A stretch of 64,000 nt of DNA from Candidatus Bathyarchaeota archaeon (GCA_963775685.1 CAVZJV010000005.1:95465-159464), one strand, 5' to 3'. Counted from the stretch's first letter, positions 1-12,969 are shown. A program made the numbers and translations. The notes: a model not told the origin generated them from the letters alone.

Positions 1-116
1 TAGCTACTTTTTGAAAACGTCTTTTTGGAAATGGCAAAAAAATTGAAAAATTCCCAGATGGGGGGGGTTATATCTGAAAGGCGTATTTTCTTTTTTCTGG
101 CGTTACATTCTTTTGC

Positions 117-350
117 CTATTTAGTGCGAAGTGTCATACGTCTAAAGAGTAAGCCCATTTGCGAAACAACTTTCTCGTTAGCATAGTATTTTTGGAAGCA
201 TTGTTCACAAATAGCCTTCATTTTCTGTGAATCTGGAATAAACCCTTCAATGTTAGAGTAAACCGTTTCACCTTTTTCAATGGTTCGGTCACACTTACCG
301 CATTTACCAGAGAACAACGCCTTTCCTTTTGTCCAAACCATCTTTACCAC
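117..350 (-). CDS. Small Zn-finger protein
   Basis: CGKC...CEQC Cys pairs, 77 aa. Confidence 0.6.
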   Translation of the reverse strand: MVKMVWTKGKALFSGKCGKCDRTIEKGETVYSNIEGFIPDSQKMKAICEQCFQKYYANEKVVSQMGLLFRRMTLRTK

Positions 351-533
351 CAGAAGTGATGATATTGGTTATGTTAGCTTTTATGTTTTTGCATCTCTCA
401 GCTTTTTCTAAGTCCCATTTGGTTTCCATAATTTAAAGGAAACGTTGAAGGAAGATGAGGCGTTATAAGAAGCAAATAGGTAACCATTAAAATGATAAGT
501 AAACAAACCCAAATTATAAAAGATTTTTTTCTA

Positions 534-1250
534 CTAAATTTCTTGTTCAGAAACGTCTTTTTGGAATAATTTTGAGCGAAGTTTGCATATTTCTTTCTCA
601 ATAGTAGCAAACTCTTCCAGCTCTTTCGAATACAATTCTCCAACCCTTTGATAAAACCATTTGTAAAAATCTTTGATTAAACATTGATATTGATTTAATA
701 CAACCTTCAAGTCAACCTCTTGATTGACACGGATGTACCTTTTAGAACCAGCACTCAATTTCTTTGAAGGTAACCTTTGCTTTTCCAACAGTATGCTTTG
801 TTTAATTTGCTGCTCTTCTCTGGAAAAATGTGTTAACAAGTAGGGAAATTCAATATGTTGGGTAATATTTCGCAAGTCTTTTATAAAAACGTAACAATCG
901 TTAGGCTCTAAAGCGTTGACTCTTGCATCATATTCTTCTTTTAGTTTTGAGTATTTCTCACAAAATCTTGAATTATGTCTAATCAAACTGAAAGTACTGG
1001 AAAGATAATTATGCAGTAGTCTTGAAAGTTCTCTAAAAAAGAGAGTACGTTCTTTTCCACTATTCCACAATGCTGAGTTGCCTTCGTAATTTGCCATTGC
1101 TAAGGATAATTCTTGATAGTTTCTGTTTACTGCATAATGAGTACTTTTAAATTGTCTAAGCATTATAACGATTTTTGTGCCTTCTAACGTTTCTTGCTTG
1201 TCAGTAAGTTCATTTAATCTTTCAACAATTTCAAATTGTTCTTGACTCAT
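534..1250 (-). CDS. Alpha-helical protein with HEPN-like RxxxxH motif
   Basis: 238-aa ORF with LHNYLSS and LRNITQH (R-x4-H) motifs. Confidence 0.6.
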   Translation of the reverse strand: MSQEQFEIVERLNELTDKQETLEGTKIVIMLRQFKSTHYAVNRNYQELSLAMANYEGNSALWNSGKERTLFFRELSRLLHNYLSSTFSLIRHNSRFCEKYSKLKEEYDARVNALEPNDCYVFIKDLRNITQHIEFPYLLTHFSREEQQIKQSILLEKQRLPSKKLSAGSKRYIRVNQEVDLKVVLNQYQCLIKDFYKWFYQRVGELYSKELEEFATIEKEICKLRSKLFQKDVSEQEI

Positions 1251-1384
1251 TATTTTTCAACATATCCTTAGTCTGTCTGACATTTAGGAACGCGCTAATA
1301 TTCAGTTTTAAGTTTTTTGGCTATTTCTACGCTGTTACAAATTTAAGACTTATTACGTTTTCAAAAAACAAAATGAGGAAAGGG

Positions 1385-2101
1385 CTATTTCTTGGCTTTT
1401 CTCCTTTTGATAAATACAATTGACAATAATGATGCAACTACGAGTATTGGCAGAATTAACCACGATGGAAACTCTGGAACTGTAGGTGTAGGAGTTGGGT
1501 TCTGGGAAGAATAAGGCGTAGCTGTCGGGTCTTGTGTTGGTGTTGCTGTCGGAGTTGCTGTAGGTGTTGGGGCAACTGTTGATGTTGGACTTGGACTTGG
1601 AGTGGTGTTATCCACGGAAGGTGACACATAAAGCACCCAATCATCAACGTTGGTAGTGAGGAAATAAATCTTGTAGCCTTGGCTACCTATCTGTGAATTC
1701 TTTAGACTGTAAGGATAAGGGTTGATTAAATCAATGCCAGTTGTGCCTGCGTTGGCGTAGCCATCATTGCCGCTGTCGCCTACCATAACATTGGTAGCTA
1801 CATCATAAATACTGTATTTTACCCATGTATATTCATAGTAACCGCTGGTGTAGTTGCAGTCCCATTGCATCCACCACATACCATTAGGGTTGGTCGCCGT
1901 CTTAGGTATGAAAACTGTAGGCACAGCATAATCTGTATTTTTGAAAGTATAGGTCGGCGAGGTCAGCGGGGAATCGGGTTGTGGATTTATCCATGGAAGA
2001 AGAGGAAAAGCATCTGCAGGTGCAATCATACAAACCGCAAAAAAGACTAATACGACAGTTACCAAACTACAAATAACCAATACTTTGTTTGCTAAACGCA
2101 T
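1385..2101 (-). CDS. Secreted surface protein with Pro/Thr linker and PEF-CTERM sorting signal
   Basis: Signal peptide, PT-rich stalk, VPEF + TM helix + KRRKAKK tail. Confidence 0.85.
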   Translation of the reverse strand: MRLANKVLVICSLVTVVLVFFAVCMIAPADAFPLLPWINPQPDSPLTSPTYTFKNTDYAVPTVFIPKTATNPNGMWWMQWDCNYTSGYYEYTWVKYSIYDVATNVMVGDSGNDGYANAGTTGIDLINPYPYSLKNSQIGSQGYKIYFLTTNVDDWVLYVSPSVDNTTPSPSPTSTVAPTPTATPTATPTQDPTATPYSSQNPTPTPTVPEFPSWLILPILVVASLLSIVFIKRRKAKK

Positions 2102-2130
2102 AACTACCGCTTCTCCCCAGTTGTAGTGTT

Positions 2131-2340
2131 ATGTTTTTAGCTATTAATAATTTTAGTAATAGTACTCACAATATACTCTACGATTCATTCTCAAATAGTA
2201 CTATGAACTTACCGAAAGAAATGAAGGAAACTTTAGGCATAACTGAGATAAAAGGCAAAATATTGTTTATCTTAGAAGGCTCTCAAGTCATAGTGCAAAA
2301 AGCCTATTTTTATCTGTCAATTTTGACCATTAAAAAATGA
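2131..2340 (+). pseudogene. AbrB/MazE-like DNA-binding protein, possibly degenerate
   Basis: MNLPKEMKETLGI...KILFILEGSQVIVQKA resembles the AbrB swapped-hairpin pattern; start uncertain. Confidence 0.45.
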
Positions 2341-2384
2341 CAGAGAGATATCGGTTTTCTCCATAAAAAAATATATATATGCAC

Positions 2385-2942
2385 TTATCCAGCGTACAAT
2401 TCCCTTAACCTTTTGCTCTCTTCACACTTAACAATCTTGGAATATTCAACAATAAACTCTCTAATTTCACTATAATTAAGAGAGGTTACACGTTCCTTAT
2501 TGTTAATATCACTATTATGAGTAGTAGTATATTGAGAGGTTAATAGTAATTGTATTAATTGTTCTAATTGTGAAAAACCGCAAATTTGAATTTTGTCGGC
2601 TTGAGCAAGGTCTATAACGCTGTTATAGTTTTGTGGTCTATTGGTTAATAATACGTGGATGTGAAATTTATCGGCTATGTGGCAATCTTGGAATCTGGGT
2701 TTAACGCTGTCTAAATACCATTGCGTTCTTATGGGATAATCTGCTTCGCAATGTTTGTTTTCCACGTAAATTTTATATGAGCCAACAGTAAAAATAAAAT
2801 CTACTCCGACCCCTCTTTCCCTTTTCCATAGGTGTGGAATCCAAGAATTGTGATAAGTTAAATATTTGCTTAGTTTTTTGGCTTGAGTTTTTTTGAAAAT
2901 AGAGTACTCTTGGTTTATGCCTATCGTGTCGAATTTGCTCAA
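2385..2942 (-). CDS. PD-(D/E)XK nuclease-fold protein
   Basis: GVDFIF...IYVENKH (D...ExK) motif. Confidence 0.65.
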   Translation of the reverse strand: MSKFDTIGINQEYSIFKKTQAKKLSKYLTYHNSWIPHLWKRERGVGVDFIFTVGSYKIYVENKHCEADYPIRTQWYLDSVKPRFQDCHIADKFHIHVLLTNRPQNYNSVIDLAQADKIQICGFSQLEQLIQLLLTSQYTTTHNSDINNKERVTSLNYSEIREFIVEYSKIVKCEESKRLRELYAG

Positions 2943-2999
2943 GTATTGGCTTGTTATCGTTTTTTAGCACTCTCCCTTTTTAGGGTGTCACACTACTAT

Positions 3000-3182
3000 A
3001 TAAACTTTACGTTTGTAAATGTTTTGGTTGTCATATGTAAAGGTTCAGCATCCATCCACTTTTTAATCAAGTGATTAAAAAACGAACCCTAAAAGCCTTT
3101 ACATATGTAAAAGGTTTAGTTTACATAAAACCATAACATTTATATATTAGTGTATGCATTATAGTGCATAGAGGTTTACACT
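3000..3182. promoter_or_regulatory. Divergent control region with several palindromic operators and a TATA box
   Basis: TTTAC-N4-GTAAA at 3006-3019 and 3098-3111; TTTTTAATCA-AG-TGATTAAAAA at 3060-3081; ATTTATATA near 3138; near-palindrome TATGCATTATAGTGCATA before the RHH gene. Confidence 0.7.
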
Positions 3183-3527
3183 ATGTCAAGTAAAACTAAT
3201 CAAACAGTTTATGTTCGTAAAGGCTCTCAAGCAGTTTTGAAACAATTAAGTGAAAAGACCCGATTAAGTCAGAGTGAAATTTTGGCTAATTGGCTCTCTG
3301 CTATAGAGGTAGTTATGAACCGTTTTTCAGACTTGTCATATGACCGTTTAAGTTTTGCTTCATATCCGACAGAGAGAAAAGAAGTCAAAACGCTGTTAGC
3401 ACCTATAATTAGTGGTGAAGTTCAATTCCAGCTTGATAACACAAGCGAATCTGTAAATGAGGCGAGAGCAGACCACGCAGTGACTAAAGACCTTGAAAGA
3501 ATAGCTCAAAAGGCAAAGGTGAACTAA
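3183..3527 (+). CDS. Ribbon-helix-helix (CopG-like) protein with C-terminal extension
   Basis: QTVYVRKGSQAVLKQLSEKTRLSQSEIL pattern. Confidence 0.7.
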   Translation: MSSKTNQTVYVRKGSQAVLKQLSEKTRLSQSEILANWLSAIEVVMNRFSDLSYDRLSFASYPTERKEVKTLLAPIISGEVQFQLDNTSESVNEARADHAVTKDLERIAQKAKVN

Positions 3528-3528
3528 A

Positions 3529-4203
3529 ATGACCCCTGAAGAAATTGCAGAACAATGGAAAAAAGAAGGCGAAGCACGAATTAACGGTCAACAGCGAACC
3601 GAAGTTATAAAAATTAACGTTGATAATCAAGCCATTACCGATACAATCAACGAAAACAAGAAACTTAAAGCAGAAATTGAAGAGGGAAAGGATGCAACAG
3701 ACTTATTTACTGAATTAAAAGAAAAAGCAAGCGTAGAATTAACGTCTCTCGGTGTGAATACTGAGGTCTCAGATTTAAAGAGCAAAAACGATTTAGATAG
3801 AGCAATAACGACAATTCAGAAATTAAAGGCTGGAAAAGGCTCAAATTCTAATTATCCAAGCATCCCAAGTGGAACAGTGCCGTTATCAAGCCAAACGCCT
3901 GCTAAAAAGTCTGGATATTCAAACGTTGAACAAATGGTGGATGACGCAAACCAGAACAAGGAAATAAGAAACGCATTGCTCTCTAAATGCTTAAAAGGCG
4001 TAAAAGAAGGGCATTTAATTCTCAAAAGCTATGAGTTGCCACTACCAGAAACTCAAACCTCAGATTTAATTGAGAATGGGAAATTATCAAAAAAACCTGA
4101 CGTTCTCGGAATTCAACATATGCACCGAACTAAGAAACTAAGGGAACGTGCTGAAAAAGGCGACTCTCAAGCAATTGACCTTTTGAACAGTGGAAATTAT
4201 TAA
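3529..4203 (+). CDS. Hypothetical coiled-coil protein of the element
   Basis: 224-aa ORF tightly coupled to neighbours, AGGTGA RBS. Confidence 0.75.
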   Translation: MTPEEIAEQWKKEGEARINGQQRTEVIKINVDNQAITDTINENKKLKAEIEEGKDATDLFTELKEKASVELTSLGVNTEVSDLKSKNDLDRAITTIQKLKAGKGSNSNYPSIPSGTVPLSSQTPAKKSGYSNVEQMVDDANQNKEIRNALLSKCLKGVKEGHLILKSYELPLPETQTSDLIENGKLSKKPDVLGIQHMHRTKKLRERAEKGDSQAIDLLNSGNY

Positions 4204-4206
4204 AAG

Positions 4207-4698
4207 GTGTTATGTATGGGTAAAAGACAAAAAATAGCATTTAACGAAAATAGCGAAGTGGTTTTTCTAACCATTGACACAAACACAAACGAAACCATTG
4301 AGACGAAAACCCCTTTAGAAATGGGTCTCTGGAAAAGCAGAGAATTCTATTACATTTTTAAGAGATGTGCCTTAAATCCAGTTTCACTTCAAAACATAGA
4401 AGGATTTTTCATTCAAAAAGTGCTTTTTCGTTGTCCTAATAAAGACGGTCTCGAATTCCATTACTTTTACTTCGAAAAAGGGTTTAGTTTGCCTTGTTGT
4501 AGAATCTTAGACCCACGGTTAAACAATTTGTGCGGTTTAACTTTCCAAGTTTCGACAAATGACCCAACATTCACTAAAAATATAGGTAAACCTAAACGTT
4601 TGTCTAATACAATCGTTAAAAAAGCGATAATTGACAAAAAATATAATGGCATTGATGTTTTAGGATGCTATAGTGAAGACGGCTCGGAGAGGGTTTAA
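4207..4698 (+). CDS. Hypothetical protein
   Basis: 163-aa ORF in the operon; start probably ATG near 4216. Confidence 0.65.
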   Translation: MLCMGKRQKIAFNENSEVVFLTIDTNTNETIETKTPLEMGLWKSREFYYIFKRCALNPVSLQNIEGFFIQKVLFRCPNKDGLEFHYFYFEKGFSLPCCRILDPRLNNLCGLTFQVSTNDPTFTKNIGKPKRLSNTIVKKAIIDKKYNGIDVLGCYSEDGSERV

Positions 4699-4699
4699 A

Positions 4700-4782
4700 G
4701 TGACTGTGTTTAGCTGTGTCTCTTTGGTTTCTTTGAGTCATATCGGGTTTCACCTATTTCACTACACGGCTAAGCACTTCAC
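4700..4782 (+). other. Intergenic stem-loop, 14-bp stem with two G-U pairs
   Basis: GTGTTTAGCTGTGT (4706-4719) pairs with ACACGGCTAAGCAC (4764-4777). Confidence 0.55.
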
Positions 4783-4807
4783 AATTTAAAATTAAGGTGA
4801 TTAGTCT

Positions 4808-5176
4808 ATGCCTTTAAAAAATTGCAAAAAGTGCGGAAAGCCATTTCGGGCTAATACTGGTCAAACGCATTGCCATAATCCTTGTTACCCAGAGAGTGAA
4901 AAAACTTTCAATCATTGCAGTGAGTGCGGTAGAAAACTAATTAATGGTTTTTGGTCTCGAAAACCTGAAAGTGAAAGGATATGCAGTTTTTGCGATGACC
5001 GACATAAAAAATTAAGGGTAACTCAAAAAGAAGACGCACGGAAAAAAACGCTTAGAAAATGCTCAGAATGTGGTGAATATTCGTATTTAGTGCTTAAAGA
5101 ATCGCTTTGCCGTGCTTGTTTCAGAAAAAAAGAGAATCCCAGAATTATATCAATAAAAGAGGTTAAAAATTTATGA
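4808..5176 (+). CDS. Multi-Zn-finger protein
   Basis: Six CxxC-type motifs, basic, AGGTGA RBS. Confidence 0.75.
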   Translation: MPLKNCKKCGKPFRANTGQTHCHNPCYPESEKTFNHCSECGRKLINGFWSRKPESERICSFCDDRHKKLRVTQKEDARKKTLRKCSECGEYSYLVLKESLCRACFRKKENPRIISIKEVKNL

Positions 5177-5298
5177 GTGAAATTCAAAAAGAAAAATGCG
5201 TTTGTGGTTACTCTGAGACCACTTTAAAACTAACTGAATGCACTCAATTAGAAGTTTGCAGTTATTGCGGCTCTATTAGAAGGAAATTTCAGTTTTGA
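5173..5298 (+). CDS. 41-aa Zn-ribbon microprotein (not in ORF track)
   Basis: MSEIQKEKCVCGY...VCSYCGSIRRKFQF; ATGA overlap with the upstream stop, GAGGT RBS. Confidence 0.6.
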   Translation: MSEIQKEKCVCGYSETTLKLTECTQLEVCSYCGSIRRKFQF

Positions 5299-5309
5299 GA
5301 GTGGTAAAT

Positions 5310-5459
5310 ATGGAAGACATAAACAATTTAGAACCTAAAAAACAGAAAAAAGCTAAAACGTTTGAAGAGTGGGAAGCATCTCACAACTTTAAAGACGTTG
5401 ACCCCAAATTAGTTTCTAAGGCAATTTTAGCTGAATATGATAATCGAGAGCAGTCTTGA
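5310..5459 (+). CDS. 49-aa microprotein (not in ORF track)
   Basis: MEDINNLEPKKQKKAKTFEEWE...; GAGTGG RBS, continues the operon. Confidence 0.55.
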   Translation: MEDINNLEPKKQKKAKTFEEWEASHNFKDVDPKLVSKAILAEYDNREQS

Positions 5460-5519
5460 AAAATTTCACGTATATTTTGACGTAGGGCTTTATAAGTGAC
5501 TGTTAAGAGTCAAGATATT

Positions 5520-5588
5520 TAGTGGTTGACTAATCGCCTCAAGGTTTCTGTAAAACTTTAGTCAATTGTGAAGGTTAGTCAACCACTA
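5520..5588. repeat. Perfect 14-bp inverted repeat with 41-bp spacer
   Basis: TAGTGGTTGACTAA (5520-5533) / TTAGTCAACCACTA (5575-5588); extra TTAGTCAA at 5558-5565. Confidence 0.9.
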
Positions 5589-5614
5589 TATTATTGAATT
5601 AAACAAAAAGTGAG

Positions 5615-5839
5615 GTGAAAACTATGCAAAAAATACAAAGTTTCGAATTTGTCTCCGTTAATCACACAAGAAAAACCGTGACCTTAGTTCTCACTCACAT
5701 CTATAACCCTCAATGCAAAGGTTGCAGAGAGAATTTAGTTGAAGCAAAACAGATTGCGAAAGATTACGGTTATACATTCATTCTGAAAGAGCCAAAAGAA
5801 GATTTGCCTTTTCTCAGAAGTGATTTCAATGAACGTTAA
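5615..5839 (+). CDS. Small CxxC protein
   Basis: GAGGTG RBS before ATG at 5624; CKGC motif. Confidence 0.6.
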   Translation: MKTMQKIQSFEFVSVNHTRKTVTLVLTHIYNPQCKGCRENLVEAKQIAKDYGYTFILKEPKEDLPFLRSDFNER

Positions 5840-5849
5840 CTCTTAGTTT

Positions 5850-6346
5850 TTTAACATCCACTCTAATTTTTTTTGCCAAACTAAAACCCCATTTCATTAA
5901 GTATTAATCCATAAACACATATTGTGAAATTAAACCCAAAATAATCCCTATTACGATATTAGACCTAATTATGTACCTATGGACTACTGAACTCTCGAAT
6001 TCAAGTCGAATCTAATTGGCGGGGGGGTATTTAGCCTTTTTTCAACCAATAGACCCCAAATTACAAATACTTTTCTCTTGAAGTTTAAATATTTTACTTC
6101 GAAACCTTTGTTTAATGTCCCTCTACTAAGAGAGACCCTCATTAAATAGTAGTTTTCTACAGTTTATGACACGCGGAATATTATTTAACATCCATCATAA
6201 GAGACCATTAACAGAGACATACACGGCTCTTTTTATGGTAACAATTAGAAACTTAACGGTCTTAGACTGTAGTTAATAGGGGTTTAATGAATGGTCTCGG
6301 CTCTGTTTGGGGTCAACCTTAGCCAAAAAAATTAATTTAACATCCA
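5850..6346. repeat. Non-coding region with direct repeats and nested inverted repeats
   Basis: TTTAACATCCA at 5850, 6184 and 6336; nested pairings 6052-6060/6306-6314, 6132-6146/6283-6298, 6157-6166/6263-6272. Confidence 0.75.
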
Positions 6347-6396
6347 CTTGAGAAACTTGGACAAATAAGAAGAGAAAAGAGAGCCTAAAAAAAGGC

Positions 6397-7638
6397 TTAA
6401 TCAATCTTCACTTTTTCGTTTTGCTGTTCTTTCAGTGCTTCTAAGACTATTCTCTTTATCGTGTTTGGGTCTGTTGCTGTGTTGTTTCTTATGAAGTCTT
6501 CAAGTTTAGCGATTCTTTCCAAGTCGGCTTTTCTCTCGGCTTTTCGTGTTTCTATTTCGACTTGCTGAGAGCCTATCAGGTTGTTTAGGTTTTCCTTGAT
6601 TTTTACTAAGTCTTCTCTGCTCTGCATTCCGTTGATTGAGACGAATTCAAAAGCCTTAGTGTAAGCGTCTTTTATGGTTTGTTCGTCATAGCCATAGTGA
6701 CCCCTTGAGCCTAAACGCTGGTGACCCATCATAAGGTCTTTAACTTCGCTTTTTATGTCGGCTCTGAGCAATGCCGAATTATAGAGACTTCTTAGATGCT
6801 TAGTTTTGAATTCTTTTGCTCTCTCTGAGCCTAAAGCCTTCTCTGCTAAGTTTTTCATTGATTCGTGAATTCGTCTAACCTCAATAGGTGCGTCAATTTC
6901 TGTTTTCTCTTTTGTCTCTGGGTCTATGTCTTCAATTTTTGCGTTTTTGGTTTGAGAAGTGAAGATAAAGCCTTTTTTCGGATTGCCTTTTTCGGCTAAT
7001 AGGTCTCTTAAATCGTGTACTGCTTCGAAACTTAAACAAGTGGCTTGTATTTCGCCAGTTTTTTCTCTGGGTTTCTCTAAAAAGTAGTGTGTGCTTATTG
7101 GGGTTTCATAGAATCCTTTCAAGTCTTCAATGCGAAACTCTGTTACGTCAACCTCAGAAAAACCCGACTGACTGAGAGCCAACAATAAGCAACGGTCTCT
7201 TAATGAGCCGTGGCTATACATTGCTTTAACATCATCCAGCTTTAGAGTCAATTTGTTTTTTATTCTGGTTGACTGAGTGCTGTTCCAGTCTCCACGTCTT
7301 AAATTTAGTTTTCCAGTGGTACGACCAAAAAAAGACGCTATTGTTCTTAGCTCTGATTTTATGCTTAGTGGTGCTAAAGTGGTTTCTGTCTCTCGTTTCT
7401 GTTTGTATTCTCTGAATTTCGACTCAAAAAAAGACCGTGCGGCTAAGTCTTTTGAATTCAAGTCTTCAATGCGTCTTTTTATTTGCTCTGTTGGGGTCAT
7501 TTCGATAAAGTCATTCCAGCTTAAAATCCCTCTTAAATAATTGCCTTTTGACTTTTCAGTGAGACCGTTAAGCCACTGGTTAACGTATTGGTCTTTTAGC
7601 AGTTCTGCAATTTTTGCCTTTATTTCAGTGTTGACCAT
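6397..7638 (-). CDS. Tyrosine recombinase/integrase
   Basis: N-terminal SAM-like core-binding region; LRDRCLL..SQSG, REKT, KHLR, MMGH and Tyr motifs; C-terminal coiled coil. Confidence 0.92.
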   Translation of the reverse strand: MVNTEIKAKIAELLKDQYVNQWLNGLTEKSKGNYLRGILSWNDFIEMTPTEQIKRRIEDLNSKDLAARSFFESKFREYKQKRETETTLAPLSIKSELRTIASFFGRTTGKLNLRRGDWNSTQSTRIKNKLTLKLDDVKAMYSHGSLRDRCLLLALSQSGFSEVDVTEFRIEDLKGFYETPISTHYFLEKPREKTGEIQATCLSFEAVHDLRDLLAEKGNPKKGFIFTSQTKNAKIEDIDPETKEKTEIDAPIEVRRIHESMKNLAEKALGSERAKEFKTKHLRSLYNSALLRADIKSEVKDLMMGHQRLGSRGHYGYDEQTIKDAYTKAFEFVSINGMQSREDLVKIKENLNNLIGSQQVEIETRKAERKADLERIAKLEDFIRNNTATDPNTIKRIVLEALKEQQNEKVKID

Positions 7639-7803
7639 CTAAGCCACTCCGAGAGCCTTTAGAAATTTGGCTTTATTGAATTTCTTATTATCTATTTCGA
7701 AATGTAGCATTAAATCTTTTGTGAATTCTTGCTTAGTGTTTGCAGTGGTTGACTTTAGGAATTCGGCAAAAAAGCAATAGTGTCTTTTTGTGAAATAGGT
7801 CAT
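7639..7803 (-). CDS. 54-aa virus-like microprotein coupled to the integrase (not in ORF track)
   Basis: MTYFTKRHYCFFAEFLK...HFEIDNKKFNKAKFLKALGVA; GGAGTGG RBS; stop abuts the integrase ATG. Confidence 0.7.
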   Translation of the reverse strand: MTYFTKRHYCFFAEFLKSTTANTKQEFTKDLMLHFEIDNKKFNKAKFLKALGVA

Positions 7804-7804
7804 T

Positions 7805-7870
7805 TTAAGCCACTCCATAAGCCTTTAAAACTGCTTTTCTTGTTTTGGGGTCTAATTGGTAACGGCTCAA
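7805..7870 (-). CDS. Possible 21-aa leader peptide
   Basis: TTG start, MSRYQLDPKTRKAVLKAYGVA; its 3' end duplicates that of the next ORF. Confidence 0.35.
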   Translation of the reverse strand: MSRYQLDPKTRKAVLKAYGVA

Positions 7871-7979
7871 TTTAACTCTAAAATCTATAGAATTAGAGAG
7901 ACGTTGATTTAATAGCAAAAAACTATTAAGAGTTTTAGCGATTAAATAGGCTGTTCCATATATGAAAGAAAAAAAGGGG

Positions 7980-8393
7980 TTATCCTTGCGTTTTCAGTTT
8001 TTTCCAGTCAAGATACGAAATAACAACCAATATTACTGTCCAGATTGCCCAGAAGGCGAAGGCGGGACTGATAAAATACAGTGGCAAAGCTATTACGCGG
8101 TTAGCAATTGAAGCAGCTATTACCAGCAGAGGAGCCCAAGCAAGTTTCTTTAGCAGCCCAAACAAAGCCACACCATACACGGCTGAAACTAATAGCAGAA
8201 TCACAGTTCCCGCAATCAACGCACTATAATTGCCTATAACAGTTGCGATATAGCCTGTGTTTAGTGAAGAGTCTCGAGAAGCAGCGTTAACCCACCAGAA
8301 TGCTACGTTGCCGATGTCACCGATTATGTTGATGGCAACAAAAATGATCAAGACTGTGTGCAATTTATCTAATTTTTCAATCTTTGTTTTCAT
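7980..8393 (-). CDS. Four-TM membrane protein
   Basis: Hydrophobic helices, 137 aa. Confidence 0.8.
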   Translation of the reverse strand: MKTKIEKLDKLHTVLIIFVAINIIGDIGNVAFWWVNAASRDSSLNTGYIATVIGNYSALIAGTVILLLVSAVYGVALFGLLKKLAWAPLLVIAASIANRVIALPLYFISPAFAFWAIWTVILVVISYLDWKKLKTQG

Positions 8394-8440
8394 AGATTAC
8401 CGTTTCGCCCTCTTCTATATTTAAAACTTGCTAGCAGATG

Positions 8441-10294
8441 CTAACTTCCCATCATGGAGTAGTCCACTTGGTAGATGCGCAGGTTGCTATCAGAGTAGAC
8501 AGTTGTCAAAAACCCCACAGAGTCAAAATGCGATATACAATTTGATGTGTAGTAGCTGATTTCTTCGTTACCGACATACACATAAGACACGTTGAATTCT
8601 CGAATTACCGACGCTAATTCTGTTATAGTACCATTGTAAGCTGAGTCGATTTCTTTTTCGCGCTGCCACACTTGATCCAAAGGTATTCCATGACCATATG
8701 GCCAATAAATATACGACGACACTCGCACCCGACCCGCAATCATAGTTGGAGGCTCATGAATACCATAATAAGTCAAAAACACCGAGTTCTGCGGCGTGTT
8801 GTCCCGAACCCACAAACCAAGTTGGTATTCACTCCAACTAACACCTGTGTAGTCGGTCCCAACATTGTATACTATAACGCTCGATGTTGTGATGACTGAA
8901 AACAAAACCAACGCCACCACCAAAATACGCCTGGTTTTAGCCAACATGATGCCGCTAAGCACTGCGATGAGTACCCAGGCAAACATGAAGAACTTGTACA
9001 TGTCCCAGCTCCAAGGCGTCAACAAAAGCATATTTGGAATTAAGAAAAGTATCAACAGAGTGATTTTGAGGTATTGGTGTCCGCGTTTGAAGAAAGAGAT
9101 GATTGCCAAGGCAAAGGGGATTCCTAGATTTAGTGGGTAAAAAACAAAGGGATTATTATGAACATAGGTGGCAAAAAAGTCCAGGTTAAAACTAATCGAG
9201 AACGATGACCCGCTAAAAAGGATGAAAGGCAAGGCAAAGATAGTGGGTAACAAAAAATACAGGTAACTAAGTTTGATTTTGCGTAGGTTAATCAGCAGAC
9301 AAATGGCGTAGACGACGTAGCAACAGAAGAACGCAACATTGTGGAATTCATACGCTAAACCTGTCAAGACTCCTGCGAGAATTAAGCGATTTCTGTCATC
9401 CATATCCCGTAGCAAAGCCAGAACCAAAGCAAACGCTGGCAACCCAATAAGCAAGGGGCGCTGCTGCAAGAGATTATCAAACATTGAGGGCAACCCAAAG
9501 GTTTGGCCAAACTGATAGATGTAATTCTGCGTTGGAGTAAACGTGCCATTGAGAAGGGCTGAGAACAAACCTAAATAGCTCAATCCCCAACCGAAAACGC
9601 TGATAACTGTAGCAACAACTGCCGCCCGCCGACCATAAGGTCGCGCCAACGCGTAAACCGCAAAACCAAAAAACAGAATGAACAAAGCATTAAGGACAGG
9701 CATCAAGGTAGGCAGGTATCCGTAGACTTTTTCAAGGATAGCCGTATGGAAGTCGACAAAGTAGTGGTAGCTAAGAGGTGTACCCAAATAGTTTGGGTTT
9801 TGAGGTGGGAAGTTGCCGTTGTTTAAGCTTTCGATAATTTCGTAATGGAAAGGTGTGTCCTGCCAGTTAGAGCCCGTGACGACTATGCCGTACTGGTCGC
9901 CCCGCCAAACACTGAGACCCAACAAGGCAATTGAAACAAGAAATATAACTGCGAAGAGAAGCAAGCTGGTTTTCTTAATCTGTCTCACTTTAAAAAACAT
10001 CTGGGGTTTTAGTGGTTCGCCCTTCTTGTAAACTACCCAAGCATACAACGTTGTTAAAGCCAGAAAACAAACGAGTATAGTTTGGCTTGAGTAACCTGCT
10101 GCCAACGACGCGTAATAGATGAGTTGGACGGACACTAAAACACTAAAGAGAGGTATAAAAGCCCATGTTTCATAGGATTTCAAGCGGAAAAAACGGATAC
10201 CAATTAGACCTGGAACCAGAAAAGTGAAGAGAAAGGCGGCCACAAGACCAACGATGAATGAACCAAACCCCGCAGAAGTCAACACTAAAAACAC
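8441..10294 (-). CDS. Polytopic GT-C-like membrane protein (YYY/DUF2298-like putative glycosyltransferase)
   Basis: Many TM helices; D.PFH...FPPQNP..G.PLSYHYF loop; soluble C-terminus with WVRDNTP and YVYVG..E. Confidence 0.75.
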   Translation of the reverse strand: MFLVLTSAGFGSFIVGLVAAFLFTFLVPGLIGIRFFRLKSYETWAFIPLFSVLVSVQLIYYASLAAGYSSQTILVCFLALTTLYAWVVYKKGEPLKPQMFFKVRQIKKTSLLLFAVIFLVSIALLGLSVWRGDQYGIVVTGSNWQDTPFHYEIIESLNNGNFPPQNPNYLGTPLSYHYFVDFHTAILEKVYGYLPTLMPVLNALFILFFGFAVYALARPYGRRAAVVATVISVFGWGLSYLGLFSALLNGTFTPTQNYIYQFGQTFGLPSMFDNLLQQRPLLIGLPAFALVLALLRDMDDRNRLILAGVLTGLAYEFHNVAFFCCYVVYAICLLINLRKIKLSYLYFLLPTIFALPFILFSGSSFSISFNLDFFATYVHNNPFVFYPLNLGIPFALAIISFFKRGHQYLKITLLILFLIPNMLLLTPWSWDMYKFFMFAWVLIAVLSGIMLAKTRRILVVALVLFSVITTSSVIVYNVGTDYTGVSWSEYQLGLWVRDNTPQNSVFLTYYGIHEPPTMIAGRVRVSSYIYWPYGHGIPLDQVWQREKEIDSAYNGTITELASVIREFNVSYVYVGNEEISYYTSNCISHFDSVGFLTTVYSDSNLRIYQVDYSMMGS

Positions 10295-10527
10295 TAAAAC
10301 AAGCCAATATTTTTTCAGAAACGCTGAGTAAGGTGCTTTCGCAGTGATTTTCCTGTTCCCCTTCGCCTCGAATTGGTAACAGTTAATTGTTTACTGAAAT
10401 GTATTAAGATTGCCGCAGAATTATTTTTCGCTCTGGCTTCTTTATCGTCTTAGAGCTACTTGTTCATTGCAAAATCCGAGAAAGCTTAATTAACTGAATT
10501 ATCGTGTATGTGTTGCGGCGCTTAGTT

Positions 10528-10605
10528 GCCCAGGTAGTATAGTTAGGTCTAGTATATGCGGCTGTCGCCCGCAGGACCCGGGTCCAAATCCCGGCCTGGG
10601 CGCCA
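10528..10605 (+). tRNA. tRNA-Asp(GTC)
   Basis: GCCCAGG/CCTGGGC acceptor stem, anticodon arm TGCGG-CTGTCGC-CCGCA, encoded CCA; T-loop reads TCCAAAT. Confidence 0.95.
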
Positions 10606-10715
10606 TCTCTTCTTCACTTCTAACCACAGACGTTTACTTGGGGGATTTTTAATACAAATAATTACTCAATATTTCCTTTTCACAAATGATAAATCAAGCT
10701 TGAAACAACGAGTAT

Positions 10716-10916
10716 ATGATTGTCATGGAACATCAAGTAGAAATTCCCTGTGCCTCCTGTCAATCATGGAACGGCAAACATAAAAAATTTTTCTGCAATC
10801 CTAACTCCTGCAAAGAACTGGCTGCATGGCTACTTGAACATGGTCATCAACCAAGCACGACTACGGCGCAAATACAGGTACGACTACCAGAAAACGCACT
10901 TCAATATCTGGTCTAG
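10716..10916 (+). CDS. Small Cys-containing hypothetical protein
   Basis: PCASC...CNPNSC..L..WL. Confidence 0.6.
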   Translation: MIVMEHQVEIPCASCQSWNGKHKKFFCNPNSCKELAAWLLEHGHQPSTTTAQIQVRLPENALQYLV

Positions 10917-11124
10917 TCACAAATCGAATCTCAACTCAGTTATAGTTGAGCGCCTTTCTTCAAGTATAATTTAAAGATTAGAGTTTCTTTATACACTCAC
11001 AGGTCTTGTTTTGCCCTACACCTTTAGGAGTAACTAATCATTGATTTTAGCTAAACTAATTAAATTATTGAGTGCAATTTTACATTTTGAATTTTCTTTT
11101 TTAGAAAACTTTTTATGAATACAA

Positions 11125-11712
11125 ATGCCCAGAACAAAAGAAGCAAACCAACAAATCCACGAACAACAACAAACAAAAATCCTCCAAGCAGCCACAAAAG
11201 TTTTCGCAGAAAAAGGCAAAGCAGCCACCATGGCTGACGTAGTCGCTCAAGCACAAGTCAGCCAGGGCTTAGCTTATCGGTACTTTGAAAGCCATGGTAA
11301 AACAAGCAGCCAAACGGGTGGTGGACCAGCCCACCGCATAAAGCAAATTCACGGAACCCCCGGCACCCGCCTATCAATTCTAGTTTCACACATCTTAAAG
11401 GACAGACAAGAAAAACCTGGACACTACCAACTCTTTAATCAAGTTTTGGCTGATGACTCAACACCTTATGGGCTACGGCAACTCATACTAAAAAATAATC
11501 ATATTATCCAAGACATAATTCGTCAGCTAATAGTAGAAGGTCAAGAATCAGGTGAAATCGCCAAAGATGACCCAGACCAGTTGACGGCAGCATTGATGGC
11601 ATGTTTCGAGTGGTTGCTCAAAAGAAACAGCCGGCTTGACCCCACACGTGCAAAAGAATATTTTCCCGACGCTAAAATTATTCTACGAATGCTTAAGCCA
11701 GATCTAAAGTAA
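11125..11712 (+). CDS. TetR/AcrR family regulator (apparent short internal deletion after the HTH)
   Basis: ILQAATKVFAEKG..ATMADVVAQAQVSQGLAYRYF. Confidence 0.85.
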   Translation: MPRTKEANQQIHEQQQTKILQAATKVFAEKGKAATMADVVAQAQVSQGLAYRYFESHGKTSSQTGGGPAHRIKQIHGTPGTRLSILVSHILKDRQEKPGHYQLFNQVLADDSTPYGLRQLILKNNHIIQDIIRQLIVEGQESGEIAKDDPDQLTAALMACFEWLLKRNSRLDPTRAKEYFPDAKIILRMLKPDLK

Positions 11713-11723
11713 GGTGTAAAGCA

Positions 11724-12763
11724 ATGATTCGAAGGGGAGTAAGCTACGATGTGGGTCGTGTTTACTATTTCAATTGGCGCCCAGTTTTTGAGCCAAAGGT
11801 TGTGCATCGTGAGCTTGAAATCACCAAAAACGATTTGCATTGTAATGCCATCAGAATCTGCAGTTTCAGCATTGACCGGTTGGTGATTGCTGCCGAGGAT
11901 GCTTTGAGGCAGGGACTGGAAATTTGGTTGTCGCCTGAGATGTGGGATAAAAGACCCCAGCAAACAATTGATTATCTAATTAAAGCGGCTTTAGCAGCAG
12001 AAAAACTGCGCCTGTCATGGCCTGACAAAATAGTATTCAGCGTAGGTTCAGAGCTAACGCTTTTTTTGCGAGGCATCATAGAAGGCAAGAACGTTGGGAA
12101 GCGAATTGGGAACCTAAGAACTGGGCAAAAATCAAGGAGGGAGAATACAACAAGCAGCTCAACGAATTCTTGGCAAAAGCAACCACAGCGGTAAGGAAAT
12201 AATTTCACGGAAACTCACTTACACGTCGCTGATTTGGGAAGCTGTTGATTGGAGACTCTTTGATTTGTAGGCGTAGACCATACCGAGTCGCCCAAATTAA
12301 AGATAGGTATATACAGATGCTAAAACCCCTGTTTGCGTTTGGCAAGCCAATTGTCATCACCGAATTTGGGTAAACCTACCAAGAAGCAGCAATCACTCCC
12401 GAGGGCATAGGCGGAGACATAGTCGATCATAAATCAGAGTTCCTTCACCATCTACCGTTGTTGGGACGATTTGTTCGCCCAAAAATAAAAGGCACTATAT
12501 ACGCGACGAGGAATCACAAGCACTAGAACTTGTCGACCAACTCAGCGTACTGGATAAAGCAGCAGGTGTGAATGAGCTTTCATCATGACCTTTGTCTCAA
12601 CGCTCTCCACTTTCGACGACAACCCCAAATATGACCTTGACATGGCAAGCTACAGCATAGTCAAAAGCTATGGCGGCAATAGACATGGCCTAACTTACCC
12701 TAATATGACCTGAGAACCCAAAGAATCTTTCAAGGCAGCAGCCGAATACTATGCAAACATTAG
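11724..12763 (+). pseudogene. Frameshifted TIM-barrel/glycoside-hydrolase-like protein (family often labelled abortive infection protein)
   Basis: RGVSYDVG...RELE....DLHCNAIRI...GLEIWLSP; downstream GKPIVITEFG and EPKESF fragments in shifted frames, with an in-frame stop. Confidence 0.65.
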
Positions 12764-12969
12764 AAAAAGAGAAGACGTCAGTTTTAAATCAGGCAACAGT
12801 TAAGTTCTGATTTTGTTTTAGGTCTACTATTATCGACACTACCAAATCATTCCACTAAAAATGATTCAACAAAATCGAGACTTTGAAAAAACACAGAAAA
12901 GCAACCGTTTTTGGCATTTTCATGTAGAAAAAACCATATGAGACAACAGTTACATTAATCCAAGCATAC

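Follow-up and report, generated by a model that had tools for sequence, protein, structure and literature searches.

Elimination of short palindromes from a family of integrating elements of Bathyarchaeia, probably through restriction-site avoidance

Results

A site-free integrated element

The stretch of DNA analyzed here, called the window, comprises 64,000 nucleotides from the genome of a Candidatus Bathyarchaeota archaeon (G000:C5:95465-159464; L001 designates the locus numbering around the element described below). The left part of the window lies within an integrated element of about 9.6 kb, of which it holds the right-hand 7979 bp. From left to right, this element carries an ATPase gene, a series of minus-strand genes, a module of plus-strand genes, a non-coding region and an integrase gene (Table 1). 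It contains no GATC, CTAG, GGCC or CCGG palindrome, a property which it probably owes to the avoidance of restriction sites.

When the four palindromes were searched for by exact counting, none was found across positions 1-8345 of the window, and the first GATC, CTAG, GGCC and CCGG were encountered at positions 8346, 8431, 8700 and 10578, respectively. The original prediction, which came from a manual scan, had reported the same absence and the same first positions for GATC, CTAG and GGCC, and the exact counts revealed no overlooked site. It had also put the number of expected GATC at about 25. This is correct as a zero-order figure (in window 1-7979, with a guanine plus cytosine (GC) content of 0.356, 26.2 for GATC, 26.2 for CTAG, 8.0 for GGCC and 8.0 for CCGG) but not under a maximal-order Markov model, where about 10 are expected (GATC 9.6, CTAG 23.2, GGCC 10.8 and CCGG 5.8). 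With the latter model, the four words together were observed 0 times against about 49 expected, and their z-scores ranged from -2.9 to -6.0. Furthermore, 1000 synonymous-codon shuffles of 14 open reading frames (ORFs) of the element (7380 coding bp) left 42 sites on average and 23 at the lowest, compared with the 0 observed. When the whole 9607-bp element was shuffled 500 times with its dinucleotides preserved, the average was 68 sites and the lowest count 48.

Other words were affected as well. CCWGG, GGWCC and CGWCG were also at zero in the element, and CATG was counted 3 times in its whole length, 2 of these being in the window part. As TCGA, ACGT, GTAC and TGCA were found at expectation, only particular palindromes are missing.

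In the whole genome, the four words occur 15,619 times in 3.06 Mb, i.e. 5.1 per kb. Their recurrence through the host region, as originally predicted, was thus observed, with the qualification that the host is itself depleted in these words (Markov observed-to-expected ratios (O/E) of 0.39-0.62). In 6-kb windows of the genome, the mean number of sites was 30.4 and the first percentile 8.8. The site-free stretch that includes the element measures 10,061 bp (C5:93749-103810) and starts 1.7 kb to the left of the window. About 1e-18 gaps of at least 10 kb would be expected from a Poisson distribution, whereas two were observed, the second one being 10,253 bp long (C14:1357172-1367425). Both correspond to copies of the same element family, and the third-longest site-free gap in the genome is 4198 bp.

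Comparison with genomes of the same genus in which the site is empty established that the stretch is an insertion. In these genomes, the left and right flanking genes are neighbors, for instance 505 bp apart in G012; the left one encodes a pyridoxamine-phosphate-oxidase-like protein (Pfam PF12900). The homology of G000 to the empty-site genomes stops at L001 2828 and resumes at 12445, which limits the insert to at most 9616 bp (L001 2829-12444), and the GC content is 0.356 in the element versus about 0.42 in its flanks. By the same comparison, the right end of the element falls at window 7979/7980. This is exactly the position, 7980, up to which the manual scan had extended, and the claim that the purge marks the element boundary was therefore upheld, the site-free stretch reaching beyond the element's left end by about 90 bp and beyond its right end by 366 bp. 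A repeat search gave no convincing att direct repeats at the element ends, where a 10-nt shared word, GCGATTAAAT, was the only one noticed by eye near both ends, and no tRNA gene was found at either end. Among sequencing runs, only four from soil metagenomes matched, each with 0.06-0.07 of the sampled words, and no RNA run was listed.

Table 1. Features of the integrated element, its neighbor and its second copy. Positions are those of the window unless a locus or contig is named.
Feature	Position	Strand	Remarks
Integrated element, about 9.6 kb	C5:~93837-103443 (window -1627 to 7979)		Empty site in same-genus genomes
357-aa HerA/FtsK-type P-loop ATPase	L001 2988-4205		Just left of the window; assigned from AlphaFold model and Foldseek
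80-aa gene, 5' end in window	1..37 (L001 4260-4502)	-	94% identical over 50 aa to its counterpart in the second element
77-aa ORF, cysteine-rich by eye	117..350	-	No family match
238-aa ORF	534..1250	-	No family match; no counterpart in the second element
238-aa predicted secreted protein	1385..2101	-	N-terminal hydrophobic segment, Thr/Pro-rich linker, C-terminal PEF followed by hydrophobic stretch and basic tail; no NCBIfam or Pfam match
185-aa candidate PD-(D/E)XK nuclease	2385..2942	-	D...ExK motif by eye; no methylase gene beside it
114-aa likely regulator	3183..3527	+	Opens the plus-strand module; weak match to a ribbon-helix-helix family (PF12651, E 0.006, below cut-off)
224-aa ORF	3529..4203	+	No family match; conserved in L002, L003 and L005 (29-40% identity)
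163-aa protein	4207..4698	+	Confident predicted fold, mostly beta (predicted local distance difference test (pLDDT) 92.8); no convincing match to a solved structure
122-aa protein	4808..5176	+	Several CxxC pairs by eye; 51% identical to its counterpart in the second element
54-aa ORF	5295..5459	+	75% identical to its counterpart in the second element
74-aa ORF	5615..5839	+	Homologue in L003 (60% identity)
Non-coding region, 557 bp	5840..6396	.	Three copies of TTTA[AG][AC]ATCCA[CT]; core of about 65 nt at 6183-6247
413-aa probable tyrosine-recombinase-type integrase	6397..7638	-	Weak matches to PF00589 and phrog_216
59-aa ORF	7639..7818	-	Upstream of the integrase gene; homologues placed elsewhere in relatives
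First host gene right of the element, 137-aa membrane protein	7980..8393	-	Contains the first GATC (8346)
Second, diverged copy of the element	G000:C14:~1357400-1366900 (L002 ~3421-12950)		Syntenic; no GATC, CTAG, GGCC, CCGG or CATG

The same words are missing throughout the family

The ATPase of the element has 178 homologues. A profile made from 38 of them retrieved 19 loci in genome records, all of them metagenome-assembled genomes (MAGs) of Bathyarchaeia or Bathyarchaeota, 1 IMG/VR contig and 76 metagenome loci. Fourteen distinct loci share the same architecture, with an integrase gene placed 8.1-10.4 kb upstream of that for the ATPase. Among 60 other genomes of the genus, the ATPase family was present in 6, in two of them as fragments with stop codons, and G000 has two copies. 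The copies of L005 and L012 were omitted from two protein alignments because of a stop codon in their translations.

Word counts were carried out on the 14 distinct full-length elements (127,526 bp, both G000 copies included) and compared with Markov expectations (Table 2). GGCC and CCGG were entirely absent, GATC was confined to two elements, and the control palindromes gave O/E of 0.86-1.07. Longer words followed the same pattern: CCWGG was found 0 times for 35 expected, GCWGC 7 for 101, CGWCG 5 for 51 and GGWCC 5 for 48 and, among the hexamers, CAGCTG 0 for 15 and CTGCAG 2 for 15.

Table 2. Palindromes counted in 14 full-length elements of the family.
Word	Observed	Expected	Distribution
GGCC	0	155.7	Zero in 14 of 14 elements
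CCGG	0	84.0	Zero in 14 of 14 elements
GATC	8	223.5	Zero in 12 of 14 elements; all 8 in L012 and L068
CTAG	41	323.3	Zero in 10 of 14 elements
TCGA	296	318	Near expectation
ACGT	260	301	Near expectation
GTAC	169	157	Near expectation
TGCA	500	553	Near expectation

When the ATPase gene only was considered (92 distinct sequences, 77.4 kb), GGCC was present in 3 sequences, CCGG in 3, GATC in 5 and CTAG in 34. In some of the loci with no detected integrase (e.g. L009, L020, L021, L039 and L087), sites were present within the 9.3 kb that precede the ATPase gene; there, the span that was counted probably includes host DNA.

The status of CTAG was followed on a quick tree of 52 of the 98 ATPase loci, retained as single, distinct in-frame hits of at least 250 aa without stops. 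Twenty-eight of these loci were CTAG-free and 24 CTAG-bearing, one clade of 15 being wholly CTAG-bearing. At least 9 changes of status occur on the tree, of which at least 5 are forced by well-supported branches, while the mean after shuffling was 17.4. In four metagenome loci of the CTAG-bearing clade (L037, L042, L044 and L064), CTAG is frequent, with 12 occurrences in 1.5 kb in L037, and it is absent in the sister clades.

CATG was at expectation in 12 of the 14 elements and rare in the G000 pair only, with 3 occurrences for 22.7 expected in the first copy and 0 for 21.0 in the second (whole lengths). CATG is spaced by 299 bp on average in the genome, and the three longest stretches without it (10,211, 6461 and 3435 bp) are all located inside these two elements. 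In addition, some relatives are poor in AGCT (L045, L050, L052 and L090), L045 having 6 in 9.45 kb compared with 13-68 in most, which hints at further lineage-specific avoided words.

A second copy and other islands in the same genome

The two G000 copies differ widely in sequence: the integrases are 25% identical, the ATPases 59% and most other proteins 29-51%, three short genes reaching 75-94%. The copies are old and separate. The 185-aa gene departs from the other large genes (25-59%), its two versions sharing 88% identity at the DNA level and 89-91% at the protein level, which suggests a recent exchange between co-resident elements.

A third island was noticed at G000:C14:~1259400-1271600 (L119), with an integrase-like gene (L119 7755-8909) and seven ORFs without a Pfam match. 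It comprises overlapping stretches free of GGCC (12.2 kb), CTAG (10.9 kb), CCGG (9.9 kb) and CCWGG (12.1 kb), and the few four-word sites that it retains are taken to be GATC. On a 21.9-kb contig with a GC content of 0.385, the region G000:C2:1-12234 lacks CCGG over 10,252 bp and GATC over 9128 bp and its ORFs are almost without Pfam matches; a further mobile element, avoiding words of its own, may lie here.

Word usage and restriction genes in the host and its genus

In the host genome, the four lowest of the 256 tetramers are GGCC (Markov O/E 0.39), CTAG (0.52), GATC (0.55) and CCGG (0.62), and the lowest pentamer pair is CCWGG (0.68). The flanks of 11 related loci behave in the same way, with four-word O/E of 0.36-0.53. 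The other words avoided by the element are not avoided by the host (CATG 0.89, GCWGC 0.91, GGWCC 1.13 and CGWCG 1.15).

G000 encodes one true PF01555 (beta-class) DNA methylase, which adjoins an integrase-like gene and has no nuclease-sized neighbor; two RNA methylases also match PF01555. At G000:C4:6505-9252 (L122 601-3348), the gene for a 702-aa Eco57I/N6_Mtase protein precedes an ORF whose product bears a Type ISP C-terminal specificity domain. This Eco57I/Type ISP-like system is the only restriction-like system recognized in G000, and it is not a 4-cutter.

The survey was extended to the 60 other genomes of the genus (61 with G000). C5 DNA methylases were found in 24 of the 60 and D12 (Dam-class) methylases in 12. 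DpnII cuts at GATC, NgoPII at GGCC and MjaI at CTAG. Inspection of 12 neighborhoods located a DpnII-family nuclease next to a D12 methylase in G017, an NgoPII-family nuclease next to a C5 methylase and Vsr in G060, and NgoFVII-family nucleases next to C5 methylases in G064 and G065. Seven genomes gave a match to the MjaI family: five of these genes are uninterrupted over their full length, a sixth is broken by five stops and the seventh is a fragment. The gene with the five in-frame stops (G032:C50:14661-15149) looks decayed, in keeping with a turnover of such systems in the genus.

Genes of the element

Pfam, PHROGs and NCBIfam left nearly all the proteins of the element unnamed, and about ten ORFs have no family match. 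The integrase assignment corresponds to weak matches to PF00589 (E 1.3e-4, 22.3 bits for a cut-off of 27.1) and to phrog_216 (integrase, E 8.9e-7). No methylase gene was detected in the element with Pfam and NCBIfam. By eye, the C-terminal tail of the 238-aa predicted secreted protein looks like what we take to be an archaeal PEF-CTERM sorting signal.

Between the two G000 elements, the core of the non-coding region (6183-6247) is conserved at 86% identity, in contrast to the much stronger divergence of the genes on either side. From its sequence, the region may be a replication origin or a protein-binding region; Rfam gave no match in either G000 element at E <=0.1. Homologues of the 59-aa gene, which precedes the integrase gene here, are found in three relatives at the opposite end, beyond the ATPase gene (L010 11071-11220, L012 11122-11280 and L014 11058-11210). 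Such a position is expected if the free elements are circular and the point at which the circle opens on integration differs between them.

The AlphaFold model of the ATPase (pLDDT 84.1) was matched by Foldseek to HerA (8woc, E 5.3e-8) and to STIV2 B204 (4kfr, E 1.9e-7), with target template modeling (TM) scores of 0.58-0.63. Among viral models (BFVD), it resembled the ATPase of Haloarcula hispanica virus PH1 (E 2.5e-9, target TM score 0.65). Atlas gives a DUF87/HerA_C lead for the ATPase homologue P0053, and the family profile retrieved nothing from the PDB sequences at E <=1. Since the HerA/FtsK-type fold is shared with cellular HerA, the ATPase does not by itself point to a virus. No capsid protein was identified: the 163-aa protein was the only folded candidate and had no jelly-roll match. 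It was rejected for this role, with a best VIA Z score of 3.5 and a best Foldseek E value of 0.07, nothing being obtained at E <=0.001. This protein has 44 representatives in a library of 1.84 billion proteins. We regard the element as an integrative plasmid or a provirus that belongs to a Bathyarchaeia archaeon.

Discussion

In our opinion, the lineage of this integrative element of about 9.6 kb, of which window 1-7979 represents most, is likely to have been selected to lose every site of the Type II restriction enzymes present in its host populations. Because only particular palindromes are missing and the purge is common to the relatives, the data point to restriction-site avoidance, not to base composition. 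The original prediction had offered this explanation, and the diverged second copy and the full-length relatives, in which the same particular palindromes are lacking, speak for it.

According to the mechanism that we favor, the DNA of the element would enter a new cell in unmethylated form, a resident enzyme would cut it at any site that it bears, and site-free variants would survive. If such enzymes have a patchy distribution over the host strains and the element passes from one strain to another, the summed exposures could have cleared practically all of the family of GGCC, CCGG, GATC and CCWGG and left few copies of GCWGC, GGWCC and CGWCG. They could likewise have removed CTAG in some clades and CATG in the two G000 copies. 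The complete elimination of many words from an integrating element suggests that horizontal transfer, and not residence, dominates the selection. We infer that restriction was the selecting agent, that the enzymes pair with the words as indicated above, and that the element is still moving. The depletion of the host chromosome is best explained as a weaker footprint of the same restriction history.

A long history of transfer among hosts with 4-cutter systems, as originally predicted, is plausible in view of the C5 and D12 methylases of the genus, of the DpnII- and NgoPII-family nucleases adjoining methylases and of the MjaI-family genes. The comparison with host restriction-modification genes that had been proposed gave a divided answer: matching families do exist in genomes of the genus, but none was found in G000 and no CCGG enzyme family in the 61 genomes.

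Several observations weigh against restriction as the cause. In G000, a MAG that is 96.9% complete, no match to PF00145 (C5 methylase) or PF02086 (D12 methylase) was obtained, no match to the DpnII, NgoPII, MjaI, HpaII or MspI families, and no recognizable 4-cutter. The selecting enzymes are thus not seen where the element now sits; given the completeness of the MAG, variable islands may be missing from it. Enzymes recognized by family search are also rare in the genus (DpnII in 1 of 60 genomes, NgoPII in 2 and MjaI in 7), and the HpaII family was found in 0 of 61 genomes, so that no CCGG-specific enzyme family was detected there. The MspI family was likewise found in 0 of 61, in a search that is uninformative, as the model matched no control genome either. 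MjaI-family genes were present in 1 of 5 hosts of CTAG-free elements and in 0 of 4 hosts of CTAG-bearing ones, numbers too small to link the enzyme to the word. Among the family loci of at least 5 kb, no contig with terminal repeats was found that would represent a circular or excised copy. Finally, excerpts of PMC6286503 state that near-complete elimination of sites is notably rarer in temperate than in non-temperate phages.

Other explanations have to be considered. The element might merely have adopted the tetranucleotide signature of its host, with no separate selection. In direction, the host does show the depletion, a possibility that the original prediction had raised: the same four words are its lowest tetramers, CCWGG is its lowest pentamer, and the flanks of the 11 related loci are alike. 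The degree is different, since the host keeps its 15,619 sites, at 5.1 per kb, and the element has none in 9.6 kb. Moreover, the GC content of the element (0.36) is not that of the host (0.42), and the element also avoids CATG, GCWGC, GGWCC and CGWCG, which the host does not. The difference in degree and the additional avoided words largely refute a simple borrowing of the host signature, which we consider quite unlikely. It could also be proposed that mutation and not selection wore the sites away, through deamination of C-methylated GGCC, CCGG, CCWGG and GCWGC. Several of the missing words are indeed typical targets of C5 methylases, such methylases occur in 24 of the 60 genomes of the genus, and one NgoPII system is accompanied by a Vsr repair gene, a sign of deamination pressure. 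However, GATC and CATG are usually methylated on adenine, CTAG is purged as well, and G000 has no C5 methylase. In addition, under this hypothesis a continuously methylated host chromosome would have kept thousands of sites while an occasional visitor kept none, and we regard it as very unlikely. Chance or a simple consequence of low GC has a negligible probability: a GC content of 0.356 does bring the expected numbers of GGCC and CCGG down to about 6-11 apiece, but this explanation is already refuted by the codon and dinucleotide shuffles, which never came below 23 and 48 sites, respectively, and the same zeros recur in 14 independent relatives.

A different selective origin may be envisaged for part of the purge, especially for CATG: the absence of sites would protect the element from its own 185-aa PD-(D/E)XK-like nuclease, which would restrict DNA with no methylase at its side. 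The only two elements devoid or nearly devoid of CATG are those whose copies of this gene are 89-91% identical; five elements with 28-36% identical homologues have 2.0-5.7 CATG per kb, and the element has no methylase gene. Weak leads to a nuclease are provided by PDDEXK_4, which matches 2 of 8 members (best E 5.4e-4), and by an Atlas feature score of 0.90, with 23 of 30 hits in the PD-(D/E)XK set. In the alignment of the 185-aa family, the E of the ExK motif is invariant and all 7 rows spanning the D retain it, but the lysine is lost in 2 rows of distant homologues, and the nuclease assignment is weak. The 10,243 CATG sites of the host (O/E 0.89) would be cut by such an enzyme. Furthermore, the association amounts to two cases in one host, and restriction in the host population would account for the loss of CATG equally well. 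We therefore hold a role of the element's own nuclease to be unlikely. Were this improbable reading true, it would be a case of restriction without modification, targeted at CATG and used against rival elements or, on induction, against the host chromosome.

Restriction-site avoidance, the reading that we retain, would make the purged words a record, readable from sequence only, of the restriction specificities used by host populations. Bathyarchaeia are abundant and very little cultivated, and their defense systems are hard to assay directly. The list drawn from the family (GGCC, CCGG, GATC, CCWGG, GCWGC, GGWCC and CGWCG, together with CTAG for some clades and CATG for the G000 population) constitutes predictions which can be tested by methylomes and cloned enzymes. 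Site-free stretches can also serve as a cheap marker of mobile DNA: in this genome, both copies of the family coincide with the two longest such stretches, and the third integrase island also stands out. In addition, the analysis describes a family of integrating elements of about 9-10 kb with a virus-like packaging ATPase.

Comparison with known systems

The kind of feature reported here is textbook, and it is unusually complete for an integrating element. What is new is the host group, the number of purged words, their consistency throughout the family, the existence of lineage-specific words and, as far as the published descriptions considered below go, the element family itself. Under-representation of palindromes in prokaryotic chromosomes was reportedly described by Gelfand and Koonin in 1997 and by Rocha et al. 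in 2001. The host resembles such chromosomes in being depleted in GGCC, CTAG, GATC, CCGG and CCWGG. Its depletion is partial (O/E 0.39-0.68), whereas that of the element is total and concerns more words.

For mobile DNA, excerpts of two articles (Rusinov et al. 2018, PMC6286503; Shaw et al. 2023, PMC10359461) describe how phages, plasmids and archaeal viruses avoid restriction sites. In contrast to the phages and plasmids, we are dealing here with an integrating element of uncultivated Bathyarchaeia, whose present host is without matching systems, and in which at least 8 words were purged at once, family-wide across 14 elements. With small archaeal proviruses, the element shares a HerA/FtsK-type packaging ATPase fold, as seen in the likeness to STIV2 B204 and to the PH1 ATPase, as well as a size of about 10 kb and a probable integrase. 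It differs from such proviruses in that no capsid protein was found and in that cellular HerA (8woc) matches the ATPase equally well.

In the portions of PMC10848311 that describe them, the Bathyarchaeia viruses 'Fuxiviridae', 'Kunpengviridae', 'Chiyouviridae' and 'Huangdiviridae' are head-tailed, filamentous or spindle-shaped and have recognizable structural genes. The present family was not found among these four families, from which it is set apart by their published descriptions and not by sequences, within the limits of those portions of PMC10848311. They share the same host class and, according to the same portions, some of these viruses integrate by means of a tyrosine recombinase. Two of the described families are stated there to carry their own methylases, with a presumed anti-restriction function, whereas the element has no methylase and would rely instead on the absence of sites.

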